Source: Pseudomonadales bacterium
GTDB taxonomy: Bacteria > Patescibacteriota > Microgenomatia > UBA1400 > PJMF01
NCBI GenBank assembly: GCA_020632265.1
Contig: JACKFW010000001.1
Coordinates: 727,272 to 791,271 of the forward strand
Length of the DNA stretch: 64,000 nucleotides
Direction of reading: 5' to 3'
The notes beneath the pieces were generated by a model. It was not told the DNA's origin and made no database searches. It saw only the letters and a program-made list of their open reading frames with translations. The position numbers and the translations under genes are program-made. This document shows, one piece after another, positions 1 to 39,612 of the stretch (within the stretch, counting starts at the first letter, position 1; each line of letters starts with the position of its first letter).

Positions 1-19
1 ATACTGTGCCGCAGAGGAC

Positions 20-2431
20 GTGATAATCAAACCAGAATATAATACAGATGAATTAATTCGTACATTTTTAAGACAATATCCTGGTGGCATAAGTCTTAAA
101 ACTGACTCAATTGAGCATCTTGAATTTGAAAACGCAAAATACCCAATTTGGCGAGATGTTTCAGACAAGAAGTTTTTACTTTCTTCTCTAGAAGAATATT
201 TTGGTTTTAAAGATGTTTACGAAACAGATCCAGCAATATCTGAAATCACTACAGCACCAATAAACTCACTTCTATCGCAAAAACAAGCTTGTGTCCAAGG
301 ATGGAAAGATTTGGTTGCACAAGAACTTACCTGCGAACACTTAGTTAAACCAGACGAGTGTGCCCTTTTCCCAAGACCAGTGCCAGGAACAAATTTCACC
401 ATCGCAACGATTCTAGCAGAATTGAAAAAATATGATCCATTTTATAGAGATGGCAGAGCTGCAAAAGGTTGTGAAGAACTTTTTACGCAATTAGATCCTC
501 AGTGGAAGAATTTAAGAATCGGACTAACCAACGTACCTACATATTTTGACCGTGCTTATAGATTTGGTTTTGTAGTTGCTGCTATTCATGCTAAAAAACC
601 TGTCCGGTCAGGAAATATTGCAACAAGAATTTTTAACTTTTTTACCAAAGAAACAGAATACGAAGAACCTAGAGATGAAGTTTTAGCTGCAGCTTTCAAA
701 TTGCCCGACATTGGAACAAATAAGGGCGGAGGAGAAGACACTGGACATCAATACTGGGACGATCCCCTAGATTTAACTCGTCAAGTATTAACAACCAAAC
801 AAAATCAATATTATCATGAGGAAAAATCAAGAGTTGTTAGAATTGATGATGCGGGAAATGAAATTACGGAGGGAACAGCACGTCCAGAGGTACGAAAATC
901 AATTTTAAAAAAATCCATCAAAGCAGAAATTCAAAGTGATCTGAGTAAAATATATTGTTATGATGGCATGTGGCCTAATGGATATGGAAGTCCGTCATGT
1001 AAAAATGCATTAATCAAAGCTTTAACCGACATTATAAATGGCAACGAGAATGGATGTGGAGAAGAAGAAGCAGTAAAAATTATTAGAGATATGGCAGGAT
1101 TTGCTGATCCCACCTTAAAATATGGTAAAGTTTTCACAAAAGATTATGGCGGACAAGTATTACTCTATCTATTTGGTGGCTCAATGTACAACTGGAATGG
1201 TGAATTCTTTAATCCACAAATCGCCAAAACAGATGTTAACGGAGTGCATCATTTAGACACAATATTCACTATTCGTCGAAACACTTACCCTCCTCTTGTA
1301 AATAACACAACAGTAGATTTTTATATCGTTTATCCAGTAGGCTTTGAATTAGCGGCCGTAGAAGAAGCGATGAAAGGAGCATTTTTTTCTCGCGAACAAA
1401 TCGGGGCAATGGATGCTGATCCAAGCATAGTCGATGGCTTTGAAATGACCGATCAAGTTCAGGCATTGGGTGGTGGGAGTGTAAATTGGGATTTTGTTGA
1501 TAAAGAAAAAACAGCTAGAGGCGAATGTGGAACAGACCCTCAAACACAGCAAAATTACCCTTGTGTAGAAAATGTAAACATTGTTATCACTCAAGATGAT
1601 GCGGGAATTGGAATTCTTGGAGCTAAGCTCGGATGGTGGCTTAGAAAAATTCAATTAACACTTAGTTCAAAAATTTCTTTTGCCCACGATTATTATCAAT
1701 CATGTAAAACAATGGAAGAATTCTTGCTTGGAAAATGCAAAGCCTTTAATGCAGACGGAAGTAATAACGGCGAAGATCCTCCAATTGATCCAATTGATCC
1801 ACCAATTAGTGACGAAAATTTATATTGTGTAGATTGGATCGGCCTAACTCCAGACCAAGTTAATACTTATAAACAAAGCATGAGAGCTTATCTAATGAGC
1901 TTTACTTATTCCACAGGAAGTCAAAAACCAGGATTTATCACCGAACTTGAATCACAAAATCACATTGATTGGACAGGCAGAACAATCCTCCCAGAAGAAA
2001 CAAATGGTTGGGAAGATTGGTATGGAGGAGGTAGAGCATTACTTTGGACTAAAAATCCTGCATGTGGAGGTCAAGTATGCTTTGACTACATTATGGATAT
2101 GTGTGGCAATAGAGGAGTTAATCCAGCAATCTGTATCGCTATGAGTATTACTGAAAGTGGTGGCCTAAATCACCTAAGATTTCCTGGATCCTATGACTTT
2201 GGTTGTAAAGCCGCAACTCCAAATGATATTCAATCTGGACTAGACTGTCTTTTAAATAATTTTTTCTTTAGTACTCGTCCTAGAGACGGCAAACTAATTC
2301 AAGACATGAACTTTAACGAAATGTGGTTACAATTTGCAGGCGAAGGCTTCGCATCGTCTAGCTATAGAAATCTTGAGAACATACTAAAAGCAGCTGGAGA
2401 AGTTGGTTATATTAACCAACCTTGTAACTAA
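20..2431 (+). CDS. Large hypothetical protein, probably 5'-partial (the ORF may continue upstream of the window). The C-terminal region has a Cys-rich segment with a possible lysozyme-like E-S motif (ITESGG). It is associated with the T4SS-like cluster.
   Basis: Uninterrupted 803-codon ORF from a GTG at 20, and the frame is open to the window edge. No recognisable family. The PIDPIDPP linker and ...AICIAMSITESGGLNHLRF... are seen in the translation. Confidence 0.5.
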   Translation: MIIKPEYNTDELIRTFLRQYPGGISLKTDSIEHLEFENAKYPIWRDVSDKKFLLSSLEEYFGFKDVYETDPAISEITTAPINSLLSQKQACVQGWKDLVAQELTCEHLVKPDECALFPRPVPGTNFTIATILAELKKYDPFYRDGRAAKGCEELFTQLDPQWKNLRIGLTNVPTYFDRAYRFGFVVAAIHAKKPVRSGNIATRIFNFFTKETEYEEPRDEVLAAAFKLPDIGTNKGGGEDTGHQYWDDPLDLTRQVLTTKQNQYYHEEKSRVVRIDDAGNEITEGTARPEVRKSILKKSIKAEIQSDLSKIYCYDGMWPNGYGSPSCKNALIKALTDIINGNENGCGEEEAVKIIRDMAGFADPTLKYGKVFTKDYGGQVLLYLFGGSMYNWNGEFFNPQIAKTDVNGVHHLDTIFTIRRNTYPPLVNNTTVDFYIVYPVGFELAAVEEAMKGAFFSREQIGAMDADPSIVDGFEMTDQVQALGGGSVNWDFVDKEKTARGECGTDPQTQQNYPCVENVNIVITQDDAGIGILGAKLGWWLRKIQLTLSSKISFAHDYYQSCKTMEEFLLGKCKAFNADGSNNGEDPPIDPIDPPISDENLYCVDWIGLTPDQVNTYKQSMRAYLMSFTYSTGSQKPGFITELESQNHIDWTGRTILPEETNGWEDWYGGGRALLWTKNPACGGQVCFDYIMDMCGNRGVNPAICIAMSITESGGLNHLRFPGSYDFGCKAATPNDIQSGLDCLLNNFFFSTRPRDGKLIQDMNFNEMWLQFAGEGFASSSYRNLENILKAAGEVGYINQPCN

Positions 2432-2473
2432 AAAAATTATTGATGTTCAATTCTCGGTTAATCGCAAATAATA

Positions 2474-3592
2474 TCAGCCTCCAGATGGACTAAAACCGCT
2501 CGGGTTGTATTTTAAATCACCAGGCTTAATGTTTTTTGTTTTGGCGCTTCCCAATTTCTTATCTACCTTTTTTGAAACCTTAGGCTTTGTTGCCTGATTG
2601 TTTCTATTAAGTTGGTTTTTACGTTTTGCTGAATAGGACTTAGTTTTTTGTTTTTTTTGTTTATGAACAGCTTTTTGATCGTTGCTCCTTGGATTTTCAA
2701 TTTTTGAAAATACTTTCTGTTCGTTTCTTTCAGTTTGATTTTTCAATTTATCAAGTTCTGAAAATTGCTGAAAATTTTCTTGACCTTTATTATCACGATT
2801 GTTATTTTCTTGATCATTATCTTCTTGATCATCTTTAAAAATTCTTCGAGCTCCTGCTCTCATCAATTTTGAAATAACTTCGAAAGTATCGGCTGTTGCC
2901 GTATATGATTTAAAACCATTCGTTTCTTCGTCAATTCCTTTAAGTAAATTTGTGGCAGAATCTTGATCAATTGGAATTTCCAAATCATTTAATATTTGAG
3001 CCACAAATTCGCTAAAGCACGAAGTTCCCAAGATATCATACTTTAAATTACCAAAATCAGTTTCATAAGAATTCAAGCTTACTAAAGCCGTGCTATTAAA
3101 TAAGTTTTCGTATCCAAAATATAGTTTGCCCAAAGATTCTAAGTCATCTACACCCATGAGAATTATCATATCTGCGTGAGCGCCAGTGTATGAAAATTCT
3201 ACATTTTCACTTGAAAGCGGTTGAAAGCCCTTATTAGGTTTTATGGTTAAATAAAATTTTTTTGTTTCTTCATTAATATGATAAGAAACTTTATCTATTG
3301 ATTCTTCTTGATAGTCCAAGCTTATACAAAGATCTTCGTGTCCCATCTCTGTTTGAAGTTCGCTCACGTATAAAATGTCTTTTTCAAGTTTTGAAAAATC
3401 AACAGGACACAATAACTTTACGCTCTTTTTTGTATTAACTTTTAGAGTTGCATAAAGTGAAGTTGCGGCAAACAATTGGTCTCTAATTGAATCATTAGCA
3501 CAAATAATTAATATCGACTCACTGCGAATAAAAAGCTCTTTAAATAACTCAAGTTTACGTTTATCTATCATTAATGTGTCTTTCTGTATCAA
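2474..3592 (-). CDS. Hypothetical protein with a strongly basic Lys-rich C-terminal tail
   Basis: 372-aa ORF. The acidic/basic low-complexity C-terminus (KQKKQKTKSYSAKRKNQ...) suggests nucleic-acid binding. The N-terminal half has weak, unconfirmed resemblance to DHH-type folds. Confidence 0.45.
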   Translation of the reverse strand: MIQKDTLMIDKRKLELFKELFIRSESILIICANDSIRDQLFAATSLYATLKVNTKKSVKLLCPVDFSKLEKDILYVSELQTEMGHEDLCISLDYQEESIDKVSYHINEETKKFYLTIKPNKGFQPLSSENVEFSYTGAHADMIILMGVDDLESLGKLYFGYENLFNSTALVSLNSYETDFGNLKYDILGTSCFSEFVAQILNDLEIPIDQDSATNLLKGIDEETNGFKSYTATADTFEVISKLMRAGARRIFKDDQEDNDQENNNRDNKGQENFQQFSELDKLKNQTERNEQKVFSKIENPRSNDQKAVHKQKKQKTKSYSAKRKNQLNRNNQATKPKVSKKVDKKLGSAKTKNIKPGDLKYNPSGFSPSGG

Positions 3593-3646
3593 TTATATAC
3601 CAATATTGCTATACTTGAATATTCATTTTTTGCTATAATTAATGAT

Positions 3647-5446
3647 ATGGCTAAAAAAGCCCTACTTTTTCTGGTTACAACTTTCTCACTATTATTTTTT
3701 GCTGCCAAAAACACCAGTGCTCAAGAAACTCCTGCGTGGGGACCTAGTTATGATGAAGCACAAATGAATGCTTATCGCGATGCCATAGAACTCGATAACT
3801 GCGCCACTCCATCGCTCGAATGCTTGGTGCACCAAACCTCTAGATTTGTGGCTATCGAATGGGTCAATGATATTCTCTATCCTGAAAGACCATTTAAGCC
3901 TAATTCTGGCGTAGCCGCTGGAAACGGAACTCAGGTTGTAAGAAGCAGAGGTTTTATCGGTGGCATGGCCTATCTTATGGGAGAAATGTATCGATATCCA
4001 GCTGCAAGAACATCCGTTTATGTAGCCGACTTACTAGAAAATGCTCATATTATTACCCCTGCCTATGCTCAAGGTCTCGGCTTTGCATCTCTTAATCCGG
4101 TGTTAGAACTATGGAAAGTCTTTAGAAATGTTGCTTACATGCTGTTTGTACTCATTTTTATAATTCTTGGATTTATGATTATGTTTAGACAAAAAATTAG
4201 TGGACAATCTGCGGTTACTGCACAACAGGCAATTCCAAGTGTAATCACTAGCTTAATATTTGTTACCTTTTCTTATGCCATTGCTGGATTTTTAATTGAC
4301 ATGATGTATTTACTTATGTTTATGATTATTGGCGTTTTTGGTCAAACAGGTCCTGGTTTGGATGGCGGAATTATTGATTTTAATATTTTAGACTTAATGG
4401 GAAGATTGTTCAAAGATGTGAGTGGATTTGATAGTAATGTTGATATTGTTTCAAACCTCTTTTCTTCCCTAGTTGAAAGTCAAGCTCTAGGAAATGTCCT
4501 AGGAGTAATCGGCGGACTTACACTATCACTTGTTTTAGCTGTCGCAATTTTAATTGGCACCTTCAAACTCTTTTTTGAATTGTTAAAATCATACGCCTCT
4601 GTTATTTTGTCAGTTGTAACTGCTCCAATTGTGTTATTGGCAGGAGCTTTTCCTGGCAACAATAAGTTTGGACCATGGATTAAAAATCTCATTGCTAATC
4701 TTTCGGCCTTTCCAACGGTTTTAATGGTAATTATTTTGTTTTACCAATTTACTAGCAAAACAACTGGCGCAGATACAACTGGTGGATTTATCCCTCCTTT
4801 TCTACTGGGAAGAGGTCAAGCTGGAGCAATTACTACTCTAATGGGACTGGCAATTATTTTAGCTTTACCAGAAATTGTTAAAGATGTTAAAAAGAAACTC
4901 GGCGCAACTGAAGGATTCGGCTCAATGATTGCTAGTGCTGCTGGGGCAAGGGCTAAAGAAGGAGTTCCTCTCGGTGGAAGAGTCAGCATGGGCGCATTTG
5001 GCGGAGCAGCTGGTGGAGCTCTTGGAACTCTTGGAGGCGGAGTTGAAGGATTTTATAGAGGTGCTCAAAAAGCTGGAACTCTTGCAGCTAGAGGACAAAT
5101 TGGCAAAGCAGGTCGCGTATTAGTTAGAAATACTGTTGGTGGAGCATTTATGGGAAATGAAAGAATAAAGAAAGATAAGGATGGAAATGTAATGAGAGAT
5201 GAAAGTGGAAAACCAATAACATACAATGTTGGAGGACTTTTTAGAGGCGCTAGAAGAGGTGTTGGATTAGGAATAAGAACAACTTCTGAGGTTGCAAGTA
5301 AGTCCGGAATAAGACAGCCTGATTATTTAAATCCAATAACGGGAGCAATAGATAAACTCGACCCAAAAACATCTGAAAAAGAAAAATCGAGACAAGAGTG
5401 GGAAGATAGATTTGACGCACTTAGGCGCCAAGGCAGAGGCGGATAA
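3647..5446 (+). CDS. Secreted/polytopic membrane protein; VirB6/TrbL-like T4SS channel component candidate
   Basis: N-terminal signal peptide (MAKKALLFLVTTFSLLFFAAKNTSAQE), then 6 or more hydrophobic helices, then a Gly/Ala-rich C-terminal tail. It sits inside the cluster with the VirB4-like ATPase. Confidence 0.45.
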   Translation: MAKKALLFLVTTFSLLFFAAKNTSAQETPAWGPSYDEAQMNAYRDAIELDNCATPSLECLVHQTSRFVAIEWVNDILYPERPFKPNSGVAAGNGTQVVRSRGFIGGMAYLMGEMYRYPAARTSVYVADLLENAHIITPAYAQGLGFASLNPVLELWKVFRNVAYMLFVLIFIILGFMIMFRQKISGQSAVTAQQAIPSVITSLIFVTFSYAIAGFLIDMMYLLMFMIIGVFGQTGPGLDGGIIDFNILDLMGRLFKDVSGFDSNVDIVSNLFSSLVESQALGNVLGVIGGLTLSLVLAVAILIGTFKLFFELLKSYASVILSVVTAPIVLLAGAFPGNNKFGPWIKNLIANLSAFPTVLMVIILFYQFTSKTTGADTTGGFIPPFLLGRGQAGAITTLMGLAIILALPEIVKDVKKKLGATEGFGSMIASAAGARAKEGVPLGGRVSMGAFGGAAGGALGTLGGGVEGFYRGAQKAGTLAARGQIGKAGRVLVRNTVGGAFMGNERIKKDKDGNVMRDESGKPITYNVGGLFRGARRGVGLGIRTTSEVASKSGIRQPDYLNPITGAIDKLDPKTSEKEKSRQEWEDRFDALRRQGRGG

Positions 5447-5580
5447 GAACACTTATTTTCAGTTTAATAATACAGCTTATTGGATTAAACTTTACACTAA
5501 AGCAGCGCTATAAAAGTTTGTTGCAAACTTAAGTTTGAAAATTTGTTCCATATATTCTCAATTGAAAAAGTAAGCAGTTT

Positions 5581-8500
5581 TTATTTATCCTTTGGATCAG
5601 CGGCAAGATTTTTTGGTCTTGCGTAAATTTCAATAGCCTGAAAGAATTCATGATTTCTAAGTCTCTTAACTATGTTCTCAATATCATTGGTATCGAGCGT
5701 GTTGTCGAAAAACGCTCCCCAATAAGTAAACTTATCAAGAAAACCCCTTGACTGTTCTTTAATAAGATTGCTAAGTCGACCACCCCCACTCACTATGGCA
5801 GGTCCCTCTTCAATTTCATCAAACACCGTGCCGCAAAGATCTAGTCTAGTTGCAACGGCTTCAGGAGTCGTACCCGGCTCAGTATCTACCAAGTGCTGAG
5901 GAAGTGTTTTTGAACTTCTTAGCATTGGAGAAACAATGTGAACGAACCTAGAAAGACTACTTTTTCCTCTTTCAGCAAGTCTCTTGGGATTAAAGTAGTG
6001 TATACCTTCCTGAGCAATTTCTCCAGCAACTAAATCCTTATAAGAATTATAGAGTTTCTTTAGGTAAACGAGCATTAATAGTTGTATATATGGTGTAAAA
6101 AGCTCATCTTCCTTGGTGTTAATAACTCCAAATATTCCTTTCATCATCTTAGCTTTAGCTATCATTTCTCCAACATGAGTGTCAACATCATCGATGTGCT
6201 TCAATGGTCGAAACTCTTTGTGAACAAAATCATAAAATGCTTTTATATTTGTCATAAGGTCATTATATTCTTCCAGCGTCGGCCTATATAAAAGCTTTTT
6301 ACCATCAAACTCACCAGTAACTATTTGATAAAAGCTAGGAAGTATTTGCAAATGAGGTTTTAGTTGAACCTTGCCAAATTCCACAGGAGATAAAAAGGTT
6401 CTCAGGACCTCCTCAATTTGTCTCGAAAGCACAATATTTTCTCTATTTTTACAATTTGCGGGCAAAATAAACTTTGTGTTTGGTTTCATTTCCATTTCAT
6501 AACCCACTTGCCTAGTTGGCAGATTTACAACAGTATTTGTACTATCCCATCCCACTCTTTCTTGAGGTGTGGTAGATTCAACCGTTGGTAAAGAAAATAA
6601 AAATGGTTGTAAATTTCTATCTATAAATGTTGAGGATTGAACATTATATAAATGCTGAGCTTCTGGCGCAATAACATCTAAATCTTCAAAGTCTTGAATT
6701 CCTGGTATTGGTGAAACTGTATACGCAGCAAAGTTTACAATTAAGTGTTGCTTTCTCATTTCAGACAAAGGTATAAACAAACTGAATGCATCTAAAACAA
6801 ATGAGGGCATCTTTGTTAGCTCCGGAAACTCAGCGGCCAGTCTTTCTTCGATTCTTGGAATTGGATCGCCGTTTACATCAGTTTCTCCACGAAGAGGATT
6901 TCCGTTAATGGCATAAGTAAAAGTTTTTACGTTTCCTATGTCATCTAATTTTTCCCAACTGACTGTTTTAAAATATTCCTCAAGTTTTTTTACCAATTCT
7001 TGCACGTTTATTGTGTGAGGATCGCCTTCAGAATCTTCGAAAGTTACATCGCCTAAGTTATAAAAAGCTATTAATTCCTGAGTATTAAAAAACAATCTCA
7101 TTGCAAATCTTGCCTCGCTAGTAGAGCGGGCGTACATTAAGGTATCACCCACATTTTTAGTCGTATTTGGATTGTAACCATCTCTAAACCTAAAATATAA
7201 ATCCATCAAGCGCTTAAACTCAGGAGATTGATGCTCTGTAAGATTTCTAAGTCTTTCAACATTTGGGGAAATAATTGTTTGCTGAGTAGAGTTAACAGAT
7301 GCTAAATAATTTTTATCCAATGCTTCAATCTGCTTTTCAATTTCAATCATTGAATTTTGAATTTGCGCTCTCAATTCTTTTAACTTTGTGAGAGCCATTG
7401 AATATTCCCCAACGCTTGAGTCTGCTCCAAAAATTCTTGCTCTAATTGCCTCAACTCTTGGAGGAGTTTTAAGTGATTTCGCTTTTATGTCGGTGGCAAG
7501 GGAGTTAAATTCGTCTTCTAAATCTTTAATTATCTTATCAACTTGACGAACGTTGTTTGCTTTAAAGCTAGTTGCTAATATAATTTTAATTAATTCTTCT
7601 AACTTCTTTACTTTTATCTGATATTCCTGAATTGTAAGTTCTTCAGCAGCAAAAGCTGCTTCTCCCTGAACTCTTTCTAGTTTTTCAAAAATACCTTGAC
7701 GAACAGCGCCTAGAATTGTTTTTGCTTTAGCAATTTCATCTTCAGTTTTTTTGATTGAAACAGACTTATCTCCAAACTTTGGCAAATCTTCTGTATAAAG
7801 ATCTATCTCAATTAATAAATTTTCCAAATCTGCTACGGAAGTAGTTGTTGTTAATCTTGTTTTAAAATCATTCGACTTGTCTGAAATATTTTTTTCAAAA
7901 GCTTTTTTCCAATCTTCAAACTTTTTATTATCAATCTCTTCAGCTCTCTTTTTAAGTTCCCTTTGTAAGTCTAAAGCAGGCTTAAAATATATGTTGTGTA
8001 TTGCCTCATCTCTTCTAAATGCAACCAATGCATCAACTCTAGGATCATTTTTATAAACTTCTCTAATTGCTCTAGCTCTTTCAAGAGCTTGATCAATTGT
8101 TTGAATTAAGTTTGTAGTTGATCCATCTGCCATCCCAACTTCTCTTGGATCCAAAGCGGGGTCGCTCAAAACATTTTTGTGGTCTGCAACTAATTTAAAA
8201 AGCGAAACAAATTCGGCAGGATGAGTATCATAAGAAGCGTCCCATTTTTCCCCTACTTCTTCTACTTCTGCTTTTTCTGCCACATCTTTAACAGATTCCT
8301 TTTTTTTCTGTAAGCGTTTTCTTAATTTATCTAATAAATTATTGAAGTTTTCAAAAGATCTATCATGATGCTCTGCCATAGCGACTTCAATAGAATCATC
8401 AAGTTTTTCAAGCTCTTGTTCTATTAAAGCAATTTCATCTGAGACAATCGAGTCATCAAGACCCCTGAGTTTTAGAACTATTTGATTTCTTTCTGCAACA

Positions 8501-8685
8501 AATCTATCTTTCCACCTATCAAACGGTGACACCTCAACTTCTGCAGTCGCTTCAGCATCAACGGGCACGCCAACTGTTTCTGCGGCTACCTCTGGAGGTG
8601 TTCCGGCGTCATCACCGCCCTCATTTGGCTTTCCCAAAACTTCATCTTTACCTGGATTTTCACCTTGTGTTTCTAATTCGGTCAT
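5581..8685 (-). CDS. Large (1034 aa) acidic, coiled-coil-rich cytoplasmic hypothetical protein
   Basis: Long intact ORF with no signal peptide or TM segment. It has a Glu/Lys-rich heptad-like central region. No nucleotide-binding or HUH motifs were seen. Confidence 0.5.
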   Translation of the reverse strand: MTELETQGENPGKDEVLGKPNEGGDDAGTPPEVAAETVGVPVDAEATAEVEVSPFDRWKDRFVAERNQIVLKLRGLDDSIVSDEIALIEQELEKLDDSIEVAMAEHHDRSFENFNNLLDKLRKRLQKKKESVKDVAEKAEVEEVGEKWDASYDTHPAEFVSLFKLVADHKNVLSDPALDPREVGMADGSTTNLIQTIDQALERARAIREVYKNDPRVDALVAFRRDEAIHNIYFKPALDLQRELKKRAEEIDNKKFEDWKKAFEKNISDKSNDFKTRLTTTTSVADLENLLIEIDLYTEDLPKFGDKSVSIKKTEDEIAKAKTILGAVRQGIFEKLERVQGEAAFAAEELTIQEYQIKVKKLEELIKIILATSFKANNVRQVDKIIKDLEDEFNSLATDIKAKSLKTPPRVEAIRARIFGADSSVGEYSMALTKLKELRAQIQNSMIEIEKQIEALDKNYLASVNSTQQTIISPNVERLRNLTEHQSPEFKRLMDLYFRFRDGYNPNTTKNVGDTLMYARSTSEARFAMRLFFNTQELIAFYNLGDVTFEDSEGDPHTINVQELVKKLEEYFKTVSWEKLDDIGNVKTFTYAINGNPLRGETDVNGDPIPRIEERLAAEFPELTKMPSFVLDAFSLFIPLSEMRKQHLIVNFAAYTVSPIPGIQDFEDLDVIAPEAQHLYNVQSSTFIDRNLQPFLFSLPTVESTTPQERVGWDSTNTVVNLPTRQVGYEMEMKPNTKFILPANCKNRENIVLSRQIEEVLRTFLSPVEFGKVQLKPHLQILPSFYQIVTGEFDGKKLLYRPTLEEYNDLMTNIKAFYDFVHKEFRPLKHIDDVDTHVGEMIAKAKMMKGIFGVINTKEDELFTPYIQLLMLVYLKKLYNSYKDLVAGEIAQEGIHYFNPKRLAERGKSSLSRFVHIVSPMLRSSKTLPQHLVDTEPGTTPEAVATRLDLCGTVFDEIEEGPAIVSGGGRLSNLIKEQSRGFLDKFTYWGAFFDNTLDTNDIENIVKRLRNHEFFQAIEIYARPKNLAADPKDK

Positions 8686-8787
8686 ATCTAGAATATTATA
8701 TCATTTTTGAGAAACAAATTGCCATACTCTATAATTAAATCCAACATCTTCTAGTAAATTGCTTCTTACAAAAGGTATAATCATTTT

Positions 8788-11700
8788 GTGGCTGATGAAA
8801 AACAAAAATACCAATTTAGACGTAGATTGGACAATATTCAAGATATTGTTTATGGAATTAACGCTGGTGACTCCGCTAAAATTGCAAATTTTGTTGAATC
8901 CCTAAGAAATGTCTCTGTCGAGGAAATATTTACTCAACCGGTAACATCTATAAATATTGGAAACAACCTTACTCTTCTTTCCACAAATCTTAAAACCCTC
9001 GAAAGTGGATTTGGAGCAATTGAGTTAAACCGATTTTATACATATCTTTTTCCTAGCGATCTAGTGAGAGCTCTTTCAAATATTGCAGCAATATTGGTAG
9101 AAAAAGATTCAAGGCTTAGTGAGTATGCAAAAGGAGAATTGCACCTTGTAAAAAAATGGGGTAATTTTGACACTGGATATAAAACTATCGATGAAGTTGA
9201 ATTTCTAAATCATTTTACAGAAGCTCAAGCCTTATTACAATCAGTTATTAGCGCCTTTGACGCAAACAGGGATTTTTTAAAAAGTAAAAACAAGTATGAA
9301 AACACTCTCAGCGACAAAGACTTAAAAAAACTAGTTGATGAATTAGCCAAGCAGGAAGAAGAAAAGAAAAAGGCTGAAGAAACTGCTCGGGTGGCCGAAG
9401 ATGAAGAACTACCTGGGGGATCGCCGGGAGGAGCACTTAGCGAAAGCGCGTCTCAATCAGTTGCTCCAATACCAATCTCTATTCCGAGCGCAGATCAAAC
9501 ATCACCGAGTGCATCCGTATCTCCCTCAACAACTCAAGGATCGACGTCTGGACCAACCAACCCCCTCACTCAAAAACAAAGACAGCAAATCCAATATGAA
9601 GTTGGTTGGATGTATAACCGAGCAGTTTATGAAATGTTTACTGCCTATGGGATCGAGACCAGCTTAGTCAATCAAGCACTTTTAGAAGGATTAAGAACTG
9701 ATATTTTCAAGTTCACTCTAGAAATGGATCAAAAAGATCTGGCTCTTATGTTTGGGAGCGCTTCAAAAAGACAAGCAGCACTTCTAAAGTTTTATCCTCG
9801 ATTTGGCAGCGACAACACAGTTCAACTTCAAGATTTTTATTCAAAAATTGTCAACGACCCAATGTATGCAGACCTAAGTGAAAAACAAAAAGAAAATTTC
9901 AGAGACTTTCACGTCACTCTAATTTCTGGACGAGCAATTAAAATTATTCCTCCTGCAGAGCTTTTTCGTGAATCAATAAATAACATTTTAAATTCTGACA
10001 GCCCTGTTTTAAATAAAAATATTCAAAATACCCTCGATGCCCTAGTGTTTCAATACGGAAAGGAACAAGATTTTTTTGTAATTGACCCCAACACCGGAGA
10101 GCTTACGATCAAATCCTCTAAATCAAAAGACGAAGCAATCAGGGATATGGAGGCAATTATCGAGGGAATGAGTGCAAAAAAACTCGCGCTAATCTTTGGA
10201 ATTCCAGAAAATATCTCTATATCAGATCAGCAACTAAAAAAACTCAAATCATCACTAATAAACTATTCCACTTTCAGAGTTTCAGAGCTTACCCTTAGCA
10301 TTCAAGACACCTCTCTTACGCGCGGACTAATGCGAGTTGACGCCGAGGAAGAAGAAAAACTTATAAGAAATGACTCTGAAACCAACGCAACTCACCTAGG
10401 ATTTACTGCCGGAACAAGGGCTGCGATCGAAAAAAATGGAGCCGAAACTGTCGTCGGTGGAATGGAAGAAAAAAATAACAGCAAACGCAAAGCAAAAATT
10501 GATAAAATTGCCAAGCAATACAAAACCTTCGTTCCGTTGTGGAATAATTTACAACCAAATGAACAAAGAATAGTTTATGAAAAATTTGGAATAGCATATG
10601 ATAAAAATGCCAACAAAGACACAAAACTTCAATTTATTCCAGAATTTCTATTTTTCGATGTTTCAAATCTTAAAACTTATAAAAATATTGGCAACACAGC
10701 CCAAAAAGCATCGAGCGAAGGCGTCAGCGAACTTACTCCTGAAGAAATGGTGTTATTCGAATTTTATGAAATAAATCAAAATCTTTCAAGCGAACAAAAC
10801 TATCGACAGTATGTGGCTGACTCATATCTTTATTATTCTGGAGATGAAAATGCGCTTTTAATTGCAGATTATCTTGTAGCGGGCGCTGCCCTTGCCGCAT
10901 ATCCCGACGCAGCTTTTTTTGACGATTACTCTCCTCGCGAAATCATGGAAGCAGATTACAATCTGCAAAACTCAAATTATCAGCTTTCAACTAAAAACAG
11001 ACCGCTAAAAAAAGTAAAAAGATTAAGAGACAGGGTTAAAAATTCAAAAATTTACAAGAAAGTTGCTAATAGATTTAAAAAATATACTAAAAAGAAACTA
11101 GATCCAACCAAAAAATTATTAAAGACATTTATAGACTCTTCAATATCAACTGCAGTCAAAGGTGTGTCTTTATTATTAAGCGAGATTCCAGGGGCTTCAA
11201 TAATTTTACCTCTTTTATACAAAGTTGCCAAAAAGATTGGCTTTAAAAAGATTATTGCTATTACAGGAATTTTGTTAGCAATGCTTATTAGAAACATTAT
11301 TTATCTACTTTCTTCTGTTGGAGGTTTAATTGGAGGAATCATTGGAGGTACGCTGGGATTTATGGCCGGAGGAGGAATCGGAGCTATTCCAGGCACTATT
11401 GCTGGTGCCAAAATTGGACAAGCAATTGAGAGCGCAATCTCTTCCAAATTTTCAACCTCACAAGCAACTACCCTAGGAGCTACCAATGCAACAACGGGAA
11501 CTATCGCTAACACTGCGGCCAATACAGCAATTCGTGCATCAGCAACTCAAACAGGTCTGCTTGCAAATGCCGCTGCTTCAAGTGGAGTTTTCTTTGGCTT
11601 ACCAATTTCCTTGCTTGCCCCCAGCGGAGCAATGATTATTGGGGTTATGGTCACAATATATACAATTACAACAATCCAAAGTGCTTTTCTAATACCTCTT

Positions 11701-12867
11701 CCTGTATCATATTCGAAAGCATTGTCTGTTGATCCAGATCTTACTGATGGGCTCGTTGCCTGTTGGCCTACCACGGGAAAAATATCACAACTTCCAACAA
11801 CGAGTCATGATGGCACTTACGTTGTTAATGGAGAAACCCAGGCTTTTGATATAGCTTGGGATGGCACAATATCCTATCCACCTCCAGTTCATGCGTCTCA
11901 CAATGGCACTATAACAGTGATAGATTCGGGCGCTTCTGGCTACGGACTTCACGTAAAAGTCACTTCAACTGATGGCTATATATCAATATACGCACACCTT
12001 TCCTTAATTGCTCCGGGACTAAAAACAGGACAAACCATTGGGAGAGGAGATCTTATTGGATATATGGGTAATACTGGAAACTCAAGTGGTCCGCATCTTC
12101 ATTATGAATTTCATCCAGGACTAATTAGAAGCGTTGTACCAAATGGTTCTGCTGTAAAACTAAATGATCACGTAGATGAAAGTTGTTCTACCGGAGGAAA
12201 TCCAAAGGATTTTGGATATATAGCTATTGGAAACATGAACACAACAAACGTGATTGCTTCAAGCTCAAACGAAATTAATTCTGGAGCCATCCTCACGTGT
12301 AGTTGGAGAAGTAGTAAAGGACTGATGGCGGCTGTAAATGCCAACTTTTTCAACAACGGAGGAACCGGACTTCCTGTTGGTCTAGCAGGAAATGGAACAG
12401 GAGATGTTCAATATTGGGAAGATGCTACAAGCAGCACAATCAACTCCATATTAAGAGCGTTCTCTATTCAGGGAAGTTCTCCTCAAATGACAGATCTTGC
12501 TATTGATTCATATAATGAAGCAACCATGAGCCTTGCCGTGACCGGCATTTGGTCTTCTGGAGGATCGTCTTCATCGACAAGATCAAATAGAACAATAATT
12601 GGTTTTGGATCACCTACATCAAGTTGTGCGGGCACAGCAATAACAGGAATTACAACTCCAACAGCAATGTTTATTGGAGTTTTGCCTCAAGCAACTTATG
12701 CGGAAGCAGAGGCCATGATGCGGGCCTGCGGAGCAACTCAACTCGTTCATATGGACGGTGGTGGCTCGACAGCTTTTTGTTCAGATGAATACAACTTTGA
12801 AACCACACGAGCCGTTCCAGTAAACATTGGTATGAAAAATGCAAACATTATTCCAATACCGCTTTAA
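8788..12867 (+). CDS. Membrane-anchored peptidoglycan hydrolase with an M23 (LytM-type) metallopeptidase domain. Candidate T4SS cell-wall-remodelling protein (PrgK/TraG-like role).
   Basis: 1359-aa ORF. It has a Ser/Thr/Pro-rich linker and a Gly-zipper hydrophobic block (GGLIGGIIGGTLGFMAGGGIGAIPG...). M23 signature motifs are present (HNGTITVID...; GNTGNSSGPHLHYEFH). Confidence 0.65.
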   Translation: MADEKQKYQFRRRLDNIQDIVYGINAGDSAKIANFVESLRNVSVEEIFTQPVTSINIGNNLTLLSTNLKTLESGFGAIELNRFYTYLFPSDLVRALSNIAAILVEKDSRLSEYAKGELHLVKKWGNFDTGYKTIDEVEFLNHFTEAQALLQSVISAFDANRDFLKSKNKYENTLSDKDLKKLVDELAKQEEEKKKAEETARVAEDEELPGGSPGGALSESASQSVAPIPISIPSADQTSPSASVSPSTTQGSTSGPTNPLTQKQRQQIQYEVGWMYNRAVYEMFTAYGIETSLVNQALLEGLRTDIFKFTLEMDQKDLALMFGSASKRQAALLKFYPRFGSDNTVQLQDFYSKIVNDPMYADLSEKQKENFRDFHVTLISGRAIKIIPPAELFRESINNILNSDSPVLNKNIQNTLDALVFQYGKEQDFFVIDPNTGELTIKSSKSKDEAIRDMEAIIEGMSAKKLALIFGIPENISISDQQLKKLKSSLINYSTFRVSELTLSIQDTSLTRGLMRVDAEEEEKLIRNDSETNATHLGFTAGTRAAIEKNGAETVVGGMEEKNNSKRKAKIDKIAKQYKTFVPLWNNLQPNEQRIVYEKFGIAYDKNANKDTKLQFIPEFLFFDVSNLKTYKNIGNTAQKASSEGVSELTPEEMVLFEFYEINQNLSSEQNYRQYVADSYLYYSGDENALLIADYLVAGAALAAYPDAAFFDDYSPREIMEADYNLQNSNYQLSTKNRPLKKVKRLRDRVKNSKIYKKVANRFKKYTKKKLDPTKKLLKTFIDSSISTAVKGVSLLLSEIPGASIILPLLYKVAKKIGFKKIIAITGILLAMLIRNIIYLLSSVGGLIGGIIGGTLGFMAGGGIGAIPGTIAGAKIGQAIESAISSKFSTSQATTLGATNATTGTIANTAANTAIRASATQTGLLANAAASSGVFFGLPISLLAPSGAMIIGVMVTIYTITTIQSAFLIPLPVSYSKALSVDPDLTDGLVACWPTTGKISQLPTTSHDGTYVVNGETQAFDIAWDGTISYPPPVHASHNGTITVIDSGASGYGLHVKVTSTDGYISIYAHLSLIAPGLKTGQTIGRGDLIGYMGNTGNSSGPHLHYEFHPGLIRSVVPNGSAVKLNDHVDESCSTGGNPKDFGYIAIGNMNTTNVIASSSNEINSGAILTCSWRSSKGLMAAVNANFFNNGGTGLPVGLAGNGTGDVQYWEDATSSTINSILRAFSIQGSSPQMTDLAIDSYNEATMSLAVTGIWSSGGSSSSTRSNRTIIGFGSPTSSCAGTAITGITTPTAMFIGVLPQATYAEAEAMMRACGATQLVHMDGGGSTAFCSDEYNFETTRAVPVNIGMKNANIIPIPL

Positions 12868-12905
12868 CAATTTATAAAAACCAAGAAAAATAATAAAGGC
12901 AAATT

Positions 12906-13892: not shown

Positions 13893-13932
13893 ATGTTATT
13901 ATTAAATTTGAAGTATTTACTGTCCGATACTT

Positions 13933-15105
13933 ATGCAAGAACACACAATTCCGCAAGACATCACCGGCTATAGATTTCACATAATCGGAAGCATGACCTT
14001 GAAACAATTTGGCGAAATATTTTTAAGCGTTATTGTTGCAGTAATTATTTACAACACAAATCTTTCAGCAATAATTAAATGGCCACTAATATTTTTGTCC
14101 GTAGGCATAGGTGCCACCGCTGCTTTTGTTCCTATTGAAGAAAGACCTCTTGATCACTGGATAGCAACCCTTGTTAGAATAATGTATAAGCCCACCAAGT
14201 TTTTCTGGAAAAGAGAAGCATCTATTCCAGAGGCCTTCTTATATCAAAGTCTTAAATCAACTATAATTCAAGAGCCCGAGCTTGATTTAAGCGTTGCCAA
14301 ACATCAAAGAATTAGCGAATATTTAGGCTCAATTCCTGAAAGAAGCTCCTTCTCTGCCGATTACTCTCAAGATGAAATAATAAAAATGCAAAATATATTA
14401 TCTAGTTTTGAAAGTGTTAACATTAGTTCGCCAGTTACCAAATCAATTAAGCAAATAGCCAAAAAACCCAATCTTGATGTTAGGGTTAGAAGCTTGAGAA
14501 TTCCTAAAAATATCGATGATGTTAAAGTTTTTGAATCACAAGAAGATTTTTCTGAACCAGAATCAATGTTTGAGCCTAGAAAAAAACATACTATTGATCA
14601 AAAGGGCATGAAAAAGGCAGTTTTGTCTTCCGATCAAGTTGCTCAAAACATTGATGTTCCACAAGAGGGAACGGTCAAACTAATTTCAAAAGAAGAAGAG
14701 ATTGAAAGAGTAGTTGCCGGGCAATCAGGATCTGATTTAAGTGAAAAAACCTTTATTCAAAATCAAAAAAGAGTAGTAGATAATCTGAATGCTACCAAAG
14801 ATGTTTCTTTTAATTCAAGCCTGCCGTTTCCAATCAAACCAACCAAGCCAAACAAACTTGTTGGCATGGTTCTAAGCAAAACAAACGACCTATTAACAGA
14901 TTCAATTGTTGAGGTTCAAACCTTGGATGGAGGAATTGAAAGAGCAGTTAAAACAAACGCTCTTGGACAATTTTATATTACTACCCCTCTCAGAGCGGGC
15001 GAATACAAAGTTGTGGTCGAAAAAGATCATTATATTTTTGAGCCCATGCATATAACAATTAATGACACAATAATTCAACCAATTGAAATTAGGAGTGAAA
15101 ACTAG
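13933..15105 (+). CDS. VirB3-like small-membrane-domain protein with a C-terminal carboxypeptidase-regulatory-like beta-sandwich
   Basis: Two N-terminal TM helices lie directly upstream of the VirB4 gene, the typical VirB3 position. The C-terminus reads ...GMVLSKTNDLLTDSIVEVQTLDG...YKVVVEKDHYIFEP, resembling a CarbopepD_reg-like fold. Confidence 0.45.
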   Translation: MQEHTIPQDITGYRFHIIGSMTLKQFGEIFLSVIVAVIIYNTNLSAIIKWPLIFLSVGIGATAAFVPIEERPLDHWIATLVRIMYKPTKFFWKREASIPEAFLYQSLKSTIIQEPELDLSVAKHQRISEYLGSIPERSSFSADYSQDEIIKMQNILSSFESVNISSPVTKSIKQIAKKPNLDVRVRSLRIPKNIDDVKVFESQEDFSEPESMFEPRKKHTIDQKGMKKAVLSSDQVAQNIDVPQEGTVKLISKEEEIERVVAGQSGSDLSEKTFIQNQKRVVDNLNATKDVSFNSSLPFPIKPTKPNKLVGMVLSKTNDLLTDSIVEVQTLDGGIERAVKTNALGQFYITTPLRAGEYKVVVEKDHYIFEPMHITINDTIIQPIEIRSEN

Positions 15106-15138
15106 AATTAAATCAAAGAAAGATATAAACTATAAGTA

Positions 15139-16257
15139 ATGTCAAGCAAAATAATAAGCTCAACAACTCAACAATTCTTAGATATTTTTGATATCACAAA
15201 CGATCTTGTGATCATGAAGGATGGAACCACATCTTTAATTATTGCTATCGACGCAATGAATTTTGGTCTTTTAGCCGAAGAAGAACAAGATAGCATCATG
15301 TACGCATATGCAGGTCTATTAAATTCGCTAAACTACTCCATTCAAATTGTAATCAGATCTCAAACAAAAGATGTAACGGGATATTTACAACTTCTTAAGG
15401 ATCGAGAAAATTCTTCGCGAGACAGAAACAAACAAATTAGAATTCAAAAATATCGAGAATTTGTTAGCAATTTAATTAGAGAAAGAAATGTTCTTGATAA
15501 AAAATTTTATATTGTTATTCCTGCTCAGCCCGTGGAACTTGGAATTTTGCCTCCCTCAAGTATTTTGCCAGGAAAAGGTCAAATTAATATTACTTCGGTT
15601 GATAGAAATTTAATTCTTGAAAAAGCTAGAAATATTCTCGAGCCAAAAAGAGATCATCTTATTGCTCAATTTGCAAGAATTGGCTTGTATTCAAGACAGT
15701 TAGAAACTCAAGAAATTATTCAGCTGTTTTATTTAAGCTACAACCCAGAGGCATCTGAAGGTCAGCAACTTGGAAATAGCTTAAGTTACACATCTCCACT
15801 AGTATCAGCCAAAATAGAGGGAAATCTCATGAACGACAGTCAAGTTCAAACAGTCTCTCAAGACGAAACAGAAGGATTGGTCGTAGCGCCTAACCCTAGT
15901 CTAGCTGAAAATATTGTTTCGATGCCACAAGCAAATTTTGCATCTGCTCAAAATGGAGAAGTTTCTTCTCAAAATCTAGTAAACAGCAACATATCGTCAG
16001 AGTCTTCACAAAACCCAATAAACAATCAAACAATGACGAATTCTTCGCAAGCACCAACTTTGGCGACTCCGCCTGCTCCAGAAATTCCAAAAATGGAGCC
16101 CGGAATAACAGATAATCTCGTTCCTAAAGAAGTAGTTACAACGATCAAAGCTCCTGAAGAATCTTTTCCAAATTCCAACGCTGATACGAGCAACTCGGGT
16201 ACTTTAGTAACAAATCAAAATAGAGACAATGCGATGCCACCACTTGCAGAAATTTAG
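15139..16257 (+). CDS. Hypothetical protein with a Ser/Asn/Gln-rich C-terminal half, T4SS-associated
   Basis: 372-aa ORF immediately upstream of the VirB4-like ATPase. Same strand, tight spacing. Confidence 0.5.
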   Translation: MSSKIISSTTQQFLDIFDITNDLVIMKDGTTSLIIAIDAMNFGLLAEEEQDSIMYAYAGLLNSLNYSIQIVIRSQTKDVTGYLQLLKDRENSSRDRNKQIRIQKYREFVSNLIRERNVLDKKFYIVIPAQPVELGILPPSSILPGKGQINITSVDRNLILEKARNILEPKRDHLIAQFARIGLYSRQLETQEIIQLFYLSYNPEASEGQQLGNSLSYTSPLVSAKIEGNLMNDSQVQTVSQDETEGLVVAPNPSLAENIVSMPQANFASAQNGEVSSQNLVNSNISSESSQNPINNQTMTNSSQAPTLATPPAPEIPKMEPGITDNLVPKEVVTTIKAPEESFPNSNADTSNSGTLVTNQNRDNAMPPLAEI

Positions 16258-16326
16258 CAAATAGTTGGTGGCAAAATAGCTAAAATTAAAATAAGTAGAT
16301 AGTTTATAATTTTTCAAGTACAATGT

Positions 16327-18381
16327 TTGTTGATGCCCAATATTCTGAATTCATTACCATTTTTCAAAAAAAAAGATAACCAAGGAACAGAGTCTGCTCC
16401 AATCTTAAGCCAGGAGCAAAAAGATTTGGCCAAGCTTGAAGAGTTCTCAAGAGGTCTTGTAACAATTCAGGACATAATTGCTCCTGAAGCAATCGAGGTT
16501 GATTTTACTTTTCAAAAAATTAATTCCACCTACACCAGAACCATCTTTATTGCAGGTTATCCAAGAAGTGTGCCGGCAAATTGGCTTTCTCCCCTAATTA
16601 ACTATCCTCATCAAATGAATACCTCGATGTTTATTTATCCAGTAGATTCTGGAGAAATTTTAGACAACTTAAAAAGAAAAATCACTGAGATGGAGGCTGA
16701 GATTCAATCAGACCTAAGATCGGGGAAAATTAGTAACATTAATACCGAAATTAAACTTGAAGACGCTCGATTTATTAGAGAAGAACTGGCAAAAGGATCT
16801 GAAAGATTTTTCCAATTTGGCCTATATGTAACAATTCAAGCAGTTTCAAAAGAAGAATTGGATCGAATTACTAAAAGTATTCAATCTGCATTAGGTTCTC
16901 TTCTAATTGTGTCCAAAAAAGCCACGCTTCAAATGGACGAAGGCTTCAAAACCACTCTTCCTATGGGAACAGATAAGCTAAAAGTTACAAGAAACATGGA
17001 CACCACTTCCCTCGCAACAACCTTCCCTTTTACTTCTAGTGAATTAACTATGGAAACAGGAATTATGTATGGAATCAACGAACACAATGATTCTCTAGTA
17101 ATTTTTGACAGATTTAAAATGGAAAATGCCAACATGGTAATCTTTGCAAAATCTGGAGCTGGAAAATCTTACACCGTTAAACTTGAGATACTTAGACAAC
17201 TTATGTTTGGCGCTGAAATTATTGTTTTAGATCCTGAACACGAATATGAAGAGCTTTCTGGAGCGGTTAAAGGCGAATATATTAATTTTACTTTTGGATC
17301 AGAAACCAAACTAAACCCTTTTGACCTTTCTAACCTTTATGAAGAAGGCGAAAACGAACTTGGTCAAAAAATAATTTCTTTACACGGATTGTTAAAGGTC
17401 ATGTTGGGAGACATGACCCCTCAACAAGACGCTCTTCTAGACAGAGCATTAGTTGCTGCATACAAAGCAAAAGGAATTACCCCAGATCCTGCAACACAAA
17501 CAAACGAACCACCTCTTATGGAAGACGTATATAAAGCATTAATTGGAATGGAGGCCAAAGAAGCCGATGATATTTCCGCAAGATTGGAAAAATATATTAT
17601 TGGATCTTTTAGAGGTATATTTGATCAAAAATCTAACTTTGATATTAAGAATCAATTAACAATTTTTTCTGTTAAAGAAATGGAAGAAGCAATCAGGCCA
17701 GTTGCAATGTATGTTATTTTGGATTTCATCTGGACCAGAGTTAAAAAAGATCTAAAAAAACGAATACTCATTGTTGACGAAGCCTGGTATTTTATGAAAA
17801 ACCAAGATTCTGCTTCGTTTTTACACTCAATGGTCAAAAGAGCAAGAAAATATTATCTTGGAGTAACTACAATTACTCAAGACGTTGAAGACTTTCTACA
17901 TAACGACTACGGTAGAGCGATTGTTACAAATGCGTCTATTCAGTTTTTGATGAAACAATCCACCGCCTCAATTCCAATTTTGGCCGAAACATTTTATTTG
18001 TCTCAAGGAGAACGCCAACTTTTAGTTTCTTCTGACGTTGGCGAAGGTATTTTCTTTGCAGGACAAAACCACGTCGCTCTCAGAGTGGTGGCTTCAGAAG
18101 AAGAGCATTTGGTTATCACAACTAATCCTGAAGAACTAGTTGAAAGAAAAAGATTAAAACTATCAAATATGCCTGGAAATGACTCTATTGTGAGACAACC
18201 GCCCACAAACAGTCAACCAAACATTGATGATACTGAAGAAGAAAAAAAGCGAAAAGAAGAAATTATGAAACAATTTAATAGTATTGATGAAACAAACAAA
18301 AGCACCTCTACCGCTGAAAAAGAAATGAAAACCGCAACCGACATGTATTCTATTGACTCCTATAACCCTCCTTCTTCTTGA
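16327..18381 (+). CDS. virB4: VirB4/TrbE/CagE-family type IV secretion ATPase
   Basis: Walker A FAKSGAGKSYTVK and Walker B RILIVDEAWYFM (the DEAW form typical of VirB4). Size 684 aa with the domain order expected for VirB4. Confidence 0.85.
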   Translation: MLMPNILNSLPFFKKKDNQGTESAPILSQEQKDLAKLEEFSRGLVTIQDIIAPEAIEVDFTFQKINSTYTRTIFIAGYPRSVPANWLSPLINYPHQMNTSMFIYPVDSGEILDNLKRKITEMEAEIQSDLRSGKISNINTEIKLEDARFIREELAKGSERFFQFGLYVTIQAVSKEELDRITKSIQSALGSLLIVSKKATLQMDEGFKTTLPMGTDKLKVTRNMDTTSLATTFPFTSSELTMETGIMYGINEHNDSLVIFDRFKMENANMVIFAKSGAGKSYTVKLEILRQLMFGAEIIVLDPEHEYEELSGAVKGEYINFTFGSETKLNPFDLSNLYEEGENELGQKIISLHGLLKVMLGDMTPQQDALLDRALVAAYKAKGITPDPATQTNEPPLMEDVYKALIGMEAKEADDISARLEKYIIGSFRGIFDQKSNFDIKNQLTIFSVKEMEEAIRPVAMYVILDFIWTRVKKDLKKRILIVDEAWYFMKNQDSASFLHSMVKRARKYYLGVTTITQDVEDFLHNDYGRAIVTNASIQFLMKQSTASIPILAETFYLSQGERQLLVSSDVGEGIFFAGQNHVALRVVASEEEHLVITTNPEELVERKRLKLSNMPGNDSIVRQPPTNSQPNIDDTEEEKKRKEEIMKQFNSIDETNKSTSTAEKEMKTATDMYSIDSYNPPSS

Positions 18382-39592: not shown

Positions 39593-39612
39593 TAAGGTAA
39601 GCAGTGAGTTTC

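Follow-up and report, generated by a model that had tools for sequence, protein, structure and literature searches.

A probable Patescibacteria-type chromosomal type IV secretion system upstream of dnaA and oriC

We studied a window of 64,000 nucleotides (the whole stretch of DNA that was analysed: contig JACKFW010000001.1 of assembly GCA_020632265.1, positions 727,272 to 791,271) and in particular the gene block that fills its left end up to dnaA. The block very probably encodes a chromosomal type IV secretion system (T4SS) of the kind characteristic of the Patescibacteria (candidate phyla radiation, CPR, or Minisyncoccota), derived from the MPF-FATA systems of monoderm bacteria, inherited vertically, fixed upstream of dnaA and oriC and probably used as a conduit for host contact. 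A first-pass annotation of the same DNA had likewise seen in the block an apparatus resembling a monoderm-type T4SS, fixed in the chromosome of an organism with a reduced genome, and no obvious integrative and conjugative element (ICE), and all 12 of the large open reading frames (ORFs) it had described were present with the same coordinates. The novelty that it implied did not hold up: the architecture of the locus, the missing relaxase, the remote type IV coupling protein (T4CP) and the position close to dnaA and dnaN had already been published between 2023 and 2025 (PMC12102498, PMC10633639).

For the gene order we compared the 80 closest VirB4 loci (L001-L080), which come from ~80 species-level Patescibacteria genomes and were picked by VirB4 similarity. 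The window proteins were placed in these loci by tblastn, and the named relatives carry the labels Pacebacteria, Woesebacteria or Microgenomates. Adjacency to dnaA was counted across the 76 of the 80 loci with sequence downstream of virB4. For the left part of the locus we compared two further relatives (L081 and L082) and extended the window itself with a Logan contig (L083), which is 100% identical to window positions 1-11121 and reaches 1.8 kb further left. The search for relaxases and integrases covered the window's main ORFs, non-overlapping and 100 aa or longer, and transmembrane (TM) helices were predicted by a simple hydropathy scan.

Components of the secretion apparatus

The last gene before dnaA encodes a VirB4 ATPase, the motor of the system. 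It scored 383.2 bits against the NCBIfam model NF045971 (CD1110 family, cutoff 325), covering profile positions 170-734 of 752, and was also matched by the Pfam families P-loop_TraG, AAA_10 and CagE_TrbE_VirB. Walker A (KSGAGKS) and Walker B (ILIVDEAW) are both readable. The only solved relative found by sequence was the C-terminal domain of a Thermoanaerobacter VirB4 (4ag5, E = 2.4e-44). As the best NCBIfam model is clostridial and the only solved relative comes from Thermoanaerobacter, the protein points to a monoderm origin, and judging from its sequence we assign it an MPF-FATA affinity. Across the 80 closest loci, all of them Patescibacteria genomes or metagenome-assembled genomes (MAGs), it is 71-88% identical. 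The archaeal CedB profile gave 55 bits, far under its cutoff of 700, and the CedD match fell likewise far under its cutoff; the CedB match reflects the shared ATPase fold alone.

The gene directly upstream of virB4 encodes a protein with no predicted TM helix and a low-complexity tail rich in S, N, Q and P. It matched the NCBIfam model TrsD (NF041427, TrsD/TraD) with an E-value of 2e-4 and positions 104-236 of the VirB4_plasma profile (mycoplasma-type VirB4) with an E-value of 3.4e-7, both below the curated full-length cutoffs, and a precomputed PF26593 (TraC-like) match agrees with the TrsD assignment. Since the protein matches TrsD/TraD as well as the N-terminal part of VirB4, the VirB4 N-terminal domain appears to be encoded separately as a TrsD-like protein, and VirB4 itself seems to be without it. 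The TrsD-like protein was found in 75 of the 80 loci with a median identity of 60%. The first-pass annotation had counted it as one of two membrane-anchored proteins of no recognised family. This applies to the other one, g06, whereas the TrsD-like protein is predicted to be soluble.

The protein encoded between these two was described as VirB3-like with a beta-sandwich domain. The first part of this description was borne out by a PrgI match (PF12666) of 27.7 bits against a cutoff of 27, which spans aa 6-90 and includes two TM helices forming a hairpin at aa 21-62. The beta-sandwich at aa 309-367 resembles CarboxypepD_reg (PF13620) and stayed below the threshold (24.8 bits, cutoff 32.3). The protein was detected in 71 of the 80 loci. 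As for g06, an anchored ORF lies directly upstream of PrgI in most loci, and those of similar length are just 16-24% identical. Two word-index searches returned only 4 homologous sequences. A profile of 40 orthologous sequences from the related loci had no meaningful match in the PDB or Pfam, and a low-confidence model based on the 4-sequence alignment resembles YycI/YycH.

For the polytopic protein g03 we observed a signal peptide, an extracytoplasmic Cys-containing N-domain, six TM helices and a Gly-rich tail, but no family in a search with hidden Markov models (HMMs). More than 816 homologues were found; none has a Pfam domain and nearly all are unnamed or 'hypothetical'. We therefore turned to its fold. 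For the AlphaFold2 model (81-sequence alignment, pLDDT 74.9) the top ranks of a Foldseek search against the PDB were taken by five chains of the VirB5/VirB6 stalk of the R388 T4SS. On the strength of this predicted structure the protein is the VirB6 equivalent of the system, confirmed at the level of the fold. No VirB5 partner was recognisable. A reading of g03 as a pilin was suggested by a weak TrbC/VirB2 match (E = 0.021) and dropped, as the protein has the VirB6 fold.

The large membrane protein g05 carries a Peptidase_M23 domain (70.9 bits) and a NAGPA domain (27.4 bits, cutoff 25) and is also matched by NCBIfam models for peptidoglycan hydrolases. A block of TM helices and glycine zippers (DUF6861/Gly-zipper, ~aa 792-958) precedes both domains. 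Neither a signal peptide nor a TM helix was detected in the N-terminal ~790 aa (window 8788-11160), which also matched nothing in Pfam, NCBIfam or PHROG. By its domain content g05 is the predicted cell-wall hydrolase of the system and a functional analogue of VirB1; it was found upstream of virB4 in 41 of the 80 loci. The simple hydropathy scan does not fix the number of its TM helices and hence the orientation of the M23 and NAGPA domains relative to the membrane. From g05 to virB4 the genes follow each other in one direction with gaps of 33-69 nt behind a promoter-like site. The operon-like arrangement, the VirB4 motifs, the M23 hydrolase and the VirB6-like protein are thus as the first-pass annotation had them.

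The same annotation had recognised no VirB2-type pilin. The contig that extends the window encodes a complete 144-aa T4SS_pilin (PF18895, 40.1 bits) and a second one of which only the end is covered (27.3 bits), both within 1.8 kb of the left window edge, and in L081 and L082 the same place holds 5-6 pilin genes. With the pilin genes located just beyond the window edge, their apparent absence was an artefact of where the window starts. After the pilins both relatives have, in this order, a homologue of g01, one of g02 in minus orientation, the gene for the VirB6-like protein, a large ORF on the minus strand and the hydrolase.

In this genome, as in relatives, g01 comes after the VirB2-like pilin genes and before the one for the VirB6-like protein. 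It had been listed as a complete protein at 20..2431; it is in fact a truncated part. No stop codon interrupts its frame back to base 2, and its alignment with a 1172-aa homologue (44% identity) begins at residue 373 of the latter. On the extended contig the full product has 1174 aa with a signal peptide. The ORF listing gives 20..2431 without a preceding in-frame stop, and ORFs at a window edge may falsely look complete. The g01 family (P0125-P0274) has 162 representatives at E <= 1e-3 among 1.84 billion proteins. Its members are ~1100-1700 aa long, secreted and Cys-rich; their central module is conserved and their ends vary. Among the 34 members that were scanned we found SLT_3 in 4, SLT in 2 (thus SLT or SLT_3 in 6/34) and GH5, Glyco_hydro_cc and Exo_endo_phos (endo/exonuclease-phosphatase) in one each; one relative combines SLT with Glyco_hydro_cc. 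The window copy had neither such a match nor any other in the HMM and PDB searches that stood up. Its C-terminal end is a conserved domain with an invariant ESGG...DFGC pattern and no family match. A BLIP-II match of g01 was attributed to repeats and rejected; none of its stretches was significant by itself.

The other large protein said to defy annotation, g04, indeed matched no Pfam, NCBIfam or PHROG family, and neither a TM helix nor a signal peptide was predicted. By tblastn it was found in 2 of the 80 loci and remained undetected in L081 and L082, although a large minus-strand ORF fills the same slot. It appears to be a fast-evolving protein, conserved in position only, and a candidate member of the system. 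The product of g02, for which no TM helix was predicted and no Pfam, NCBIfam or PHROG match was found, is 47% and 40% identical to the product of the same-position gene in L081 and L082, respectively.

Table 1. Features of the T4SS block, the origin region and the T4CP-like gene. Coordinates refer to the window unless a contig is named.
Feature	Position	Strand	Basis or remark
VirB2-like T4SS_pilin (PF18895) genes directly upstream of g01	L083:8691-12941; L081:2869-5195; L082:1-2594		at least 2 in this genome's extension
g01, last 810 of the 1174 aa of a secreted Cys-rich protein	2..2431	+	cut by window edge
g02, conserved 372-aa protein with K/N/Q-rich tail	2474..3592	-	position and sequence conserved in relatives
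g03, VirB6-like polytopic membrane protein, 599 aa	3647..5446	+	topology, fold
g04, 1034-aa protein, coiled-coil-like acidic N-terminal half	5581..8685	-	divergent from hydrolase operon
Promoter-like site before the g05-virB4 gene string	8707..8735	+	TTGAGA-17-TATAAT, 11/12 matches; consensus match only
g05, 1359-aa membrane protein, C-terminal Peptidase_M23 + NAGPA (phosphodiester glycosidase)	8788..12867	+	Pfam, NCBIfam
g06, N-terminally anchored extracytoplasmic protein, 328 aa	12906..13892	+	fast-evolving, position conserved
PrgI/VirB3-like 2-TM protein with C-terminal beta-sandwich	13933..15105	+	PF12666, PF13620 (below cutoff), TM hairpin
TrsD-like soluble protein, VirB4 N-terminal-domain homologue	15139..16257	+	TrsD, VirB4_plasma, PF26593 matches
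VirB4 ATPase, motor	16327..18381	+	NCBIfam NF045971, Pfam, 4ag5, Walker A/B
virB4-dnaA spacer	18382..18517		DnaA boxes 18423-18431 (perfect) and, adjacent, 18435-18443 (one mismatch)
dnaA	18518..20086	+	TIGR00362 450 bits; Pfam Bac_DnaA, Bac_DnaA_C
AT-rich dnaA-dnaN spacer, probable oriC	20087..20392		DnaA boxes 20088, 20099 (perfect), 20284
dnaN	20393..21505	+	profile matches
rpmH; rnpA; then yidC, jag	21560-21706; 21716-22069		usual origin-proximal genes after dnaN
T4CP-like ATPase (DUF8128/DUF87 + TraG-D_C)	38789..40983	-	split by 1-nt frameshift near 39735-39745

Position at the origin and mobility functions

The start of dnaA lies 137 nt past virB4. Five DnaA-box matches fall into the two short spacers around dnaA. 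Across the whole window 19 boxes were observed against 19.6 expected, which is not above chance, so that the clustering around dnaA alone is meaningful. The cumulative GC skew has its minimum at 18-20 kb and the GC content drops to 0.263 in the 20-22 kb bin. With DnaA boxes on both sides of dnaA and the skew minimum at this place, the proximity of the T4SS block to oriC, which had been proposed before, is well supported. If oriC lies in the spacers flanking dnaA, the 9.6-kb string from the hydrolase to virB4 (8788-18381) runs towards the origin and head-on to the leftward replication fork. The origin-ward orientation is common to 76/76 loci; the head-on reading is inferred only from the GC skew and the DnaA boxes.

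The synteny comparison gave a consistent picture. The common order in the related loci is hydrolase, anchored protein, PrgI, TrsD, VirB4, DnaA, DnaN, YidC, Jag, RNase H and DUF4012; in the window, too, RNase H follows further downstream in the same origin-proximal string. dnaA follows virB4 in all 76 informative loci, and the location of the T4SS block is fixed across ~80 species. Given that all 80 closest VirB4 loci belong to Patescibacteria and share a conserved order, we conclude that the system is inherited vertically as part of the chromosome. In these loci, selected by VirB4 similarity, VirB4 was the best-conserved protein with a median identity of 81%, compared to 57% for YidC, 56% for DnaA and 45% for DnaN, and it is probably under strong purifying selection.

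Two side observations concern the same loci. A 1018-aa DUF4012 protein (24067-27123, plus strand) is encoded downstream of RNase H and was detected in 56 of the 80 loci. Furthermore, many public genomes with the locus are labelled 'Pseudomonadales', 'Limisphaerales' or 'TM6' (CP011212), for instance L003, L006, L012, L028 and L056, and the genome of the window itself carries the label 'Pseudomonadales bacterium' (H6772_03630). The oddly labelled genomes show 75-86% VirB4 identity and full synteny with Pacebacteria and Woesebacteria MAGs, and these labels are therefore probably wrong.

Among the ORFs searched we found no relaxase family, in agreement with the first-pass annotation. No integrase family and no tRNA gene occurs in the 64-kb window; direct repeats were not searched. 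Nor did we find an intact coupling protein of the VirD4/TcpA type in the window, where the sole candidate is a T4CP-like gene 20 kb from virB4. A three-frame reading splits it into pieces of 454/456 aa and 267 aa, and no TM helix was predicted in the N-terminal part. The same split (454 + 267 aa) is present with 100% identity in the independent assemblies SRR12358675 and SRR776449. Because it is reproduced in unrelated read sets, the frameshift, which had been noticed before together with the distance, is real in this population and not an assembly error. In an exact-match look-up the C-terminal fragment was on record; for the N-terminal fragment and for RadA there was no record.

Known systems and candidate functions

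The locus corresponds closely to the T4SS described in a phylum-wide survey of the Patescibacteria (Quinonero-Coronel et al. 2025, PMC12102498). There, VirB4 forms a monophyletic clade nested in MPF-FATA, TrsD is its most frequent companion, and PrgI-type VirB3, VirB6 and arrays of VirB2-like pilins were reported, the arrays above all in Microgenomatia and Saccharimonadia. VirB1 is possibly replaced by M23-type enzymes, relaxases are almost absent, T4CP genes lie far from virB4, and dnaA/dnaN, rnpA and rpmH are enriched beside virB4 in Paceibacteria and Microgenomatia. The window has the same MPF-FATA-related VirB4 with an adjacent TrsD, a PrgI/VirB3-like and a VirB6-like protein, VirB2-like pilins nearby, peptidase-type wall hydrolases but no canonical VirB1, no relaxase and a remote T4CP, and it shares the chromosomal place beside dnaA/dnaN with rnpA and rpmH near. 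It differs in the frameshifted T4CP gene and in its hydrolase, which is encoded upstream of virB4 and has a NAGPA domain, a domain absent from the main text of the survey. For Microgenomatia the survey called VirB6 homologues 'scarce' and found only 22.6% of the VirB3 matches linked to virB4, whereas here a VirB3-like and a VirB6 protein are both present and linked to virB4, the latter recognisable by fold only.

With the conjugative MPF-FATA systems (pCF10 PrgH-PrgL, pGO1 Trs, C. difficile CTn2 CD1110, pIP501) the window shares the VirB4 family, TrsD, PrgI, a polytopic VirB6-type protein, a large membrane-anchored peptidoglycan hydrolase and the lack of outer-membrane core proteins. Unlike them, it has no relaxase/oriT module, no functional T4CP and no recognisable VirB8-like protein (PrgL/TraM/TcpC), it is fixed in the chromosome instead of residing on a mobile element, and it has VirB2-like pilins, which the Gram-positive systems do not have (PMC12857230). 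Compared to TrwI/VirB6 of R388 and DotA of Legionella, g03 is only 7-14% identical and longer (599 aa), with its Sec signal peptide, Cys-containing N-domain and Gly-rich C-terminal tail, and without a VirB5 partner. Helicobacter ComB (DNA uptake), archaeal Ced (DNA import) and Bordetella Ptl (toxin export) also run on a VirB4-type ATPase with no relaxase or coupling protein and are candidate functional analogues, although orthology is shown for no more than the ATPase, and envelope type and pilin content differ.

What the window adds to the published picture is small: a fold-level VirB6 where HMM surveys of Microgenomatia largely miss it, a VirB4 whose conservation exceeds that of DnaA in the related genomes, a T4CP-like gene that is truly broken here, and g01, g02 and g06 as conserved candidate partners for structural and functional work. 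The locus is also a clean and complete example fixed at oriC, and the named relatives of its lineage are members of the Microgenomates group. Patescibacteria make up a large share of bacterial diversity, and theirs is the first T4SS on which the growth of the carrier bacterium itself was shown to depend (PMC12857230, PMC11665869). In Southlakia epibionticum, transposon sequencing (Tn-seq) found a homologous cluster (SEML1_0006-0019) and the pilins essential for epibiotic growth (Wang et al. 2023, PMC10633639). Effector delivery and nucleotide uptake have been proposed as functions in reviews (PMC11665869, PMC12857230), and tube-like structures at the parasite-host interface, possibly T4SS pili, have been described together with feeding on host RNA (bioRxiv 10.64898/2026.06.21.733656).

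Most likely the apparatus is a pilus-bearing conduit or contact organelle with which an epibiont exploits its host cell. VirB4, paired with the TrsD-like protein as its detached N-domain and presumably anchored at the membrane through the PrgI/VirB3-like protein, would energise a platform around the VirB6-fold protein. It would extract the VirB2-like pilins and assemble them into a polymer at this platform. The M23+NAGPA hydrolase would make an opening in the wall of its own cell and perhaps also in that of the host. The secreted g01 may assist in this, given the lysozyme and glycosidase domains in some of its relatives. The finished pilus or conduit would mediate a T4CP-independent exchange with the host. 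A more specific version, in which g01 serves as a pilus-tip or host-envelope-breaching factor in place of VirB5/VirB1, the YycI/YycH-like g06 fills the VirB8 slot and the whole forms a T4CP-independent feeding conduit that pierces the host wall, appears doubtful to us.

Several observations weigh against the identification as a Patescibacteria-type host-contact T4SS. VirB4 is placed only provisionally in the Patescibacteria clade, by its nearest relatives, and choosing the loci by VirB4 inflates its conservation relative to the neighbours. The PrgI score barely exceeds its threshold, VirB6 was matched by fold at 7-14% identity with TM-scores of 0.34-0.43, and a VirB8-like component (PrgL/TraM/TcpC) was not recognised when g06 was checked by profile and low-confidence model. 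Only position ties g02 and g04 to the system. The termini of g01 gave no hydrolase match with relaxed Pfam thresholds, PHROGs, phmmer against the PDB or an 8-sequence C-terminal profile against the PDB. Finally, the function of the system has been called 'completely unknown' (PMC11665869).

Gram-positive conjugative elements are the source of the VirB4, PrgI and TrsD families, and a T4CP-like gene is present in the window, as one would expect of an ordinary ICE or of the remnant of a conjugative plasmid that inserted beside dnaA and transfers itself now or did so once. However, no relaxase, integrase or tRNA/att landmark was found in the 64 kb, and the GC content of the block (0.34-0.385) falls in the same range as that of the adjacent bins (0.26-0.37). 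The order relative to dnaA is identical in 76/76 informative genomes, with VirB4 more conserved than DnaA, and the T4CP gene is 20 kb off and frameshifted. Such an origin has next to no chance of being right and is rejected on the basis of the synteny and of the modules missing from the window. With no relaxase and with the sole T4CP-like gene remote and broken, a conjugation system is very unlikely.

The remaining readings differ in what the same machine would carry. We lean tentatively towards import, that is, uptake of nucleic acids or nutrients from the host or the environment in the manner of ComB and Ced, which would supply nucleotides the cell does not make itself. ComB and Ced run without a relaxase and the T4CP is broken here; nucleotide acquisition via the T4SS has been proposed, and in Southlakia competence is dispensable while the T4SS is essential (PMC11665869); and the 2026 preprint ties feeding on host RNA to the T4SS-pilus-like tubes. 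The sub-threshold CedB match is a further point, but its score goes no further than the common fold. The window holds no DNA-binding or translocase component specific to import. Export of effectors or other proteins, T4CP-independent as in Bordetella Ptl and Brucella VirB, is also possible, and we rank it after import. Hydrolases or toxins would be delivered to the host, with g01 as cargo or tip factor. Wang et al. suggest protein export, as coupling and relaxase proteins are missing (PMC10633639), and g01 has a Sec signal peptide, a site between pilins and VirB6, and a family with swappable lysozyme, glycoside hydrolase and nuclease-like termini. On the other hand, neither a secretion signal nor a chaperone was recognised, no enzyme matched the ends of g01, and the role of this protein as cargo would follow purely from its position. 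A pilus-only organelle for adhesion and contact, in which VirB4 assembles variable VirB2-like pili for host recognition and no substrate is moved, is improbable. It fits the arrays of divergent pilins that adjoin the system in relatives, the proposal that pilin variation may help to adapt to different hosts (PMC12102498) and the lack of a functional T4CP. Yet separate type IV pilin genes in the genome (48283-50013) could serve adhesion, and the conserved VirB6-fold channel protein and two large hydrolases suggest more than a fibre.

Other genes of the window

The type IV pilin genes just mentioned are three consecutive pilin/pseudopilin genes (N_methyl + T2SSG) on the plus strand and represent a pilus system apart from the T4SS. 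They lie beside a giant ORF of 4584 aa (50171-63925, minus strand), whose GC content of 0.42-0.46 contrasts with ~0.33 nearby. A Peptidase_S74 domain (endosialidase chaperone) at ~aa 3896-3950 and a weak tail-spike match make a very large surface fibre or adhesin its probable identity.

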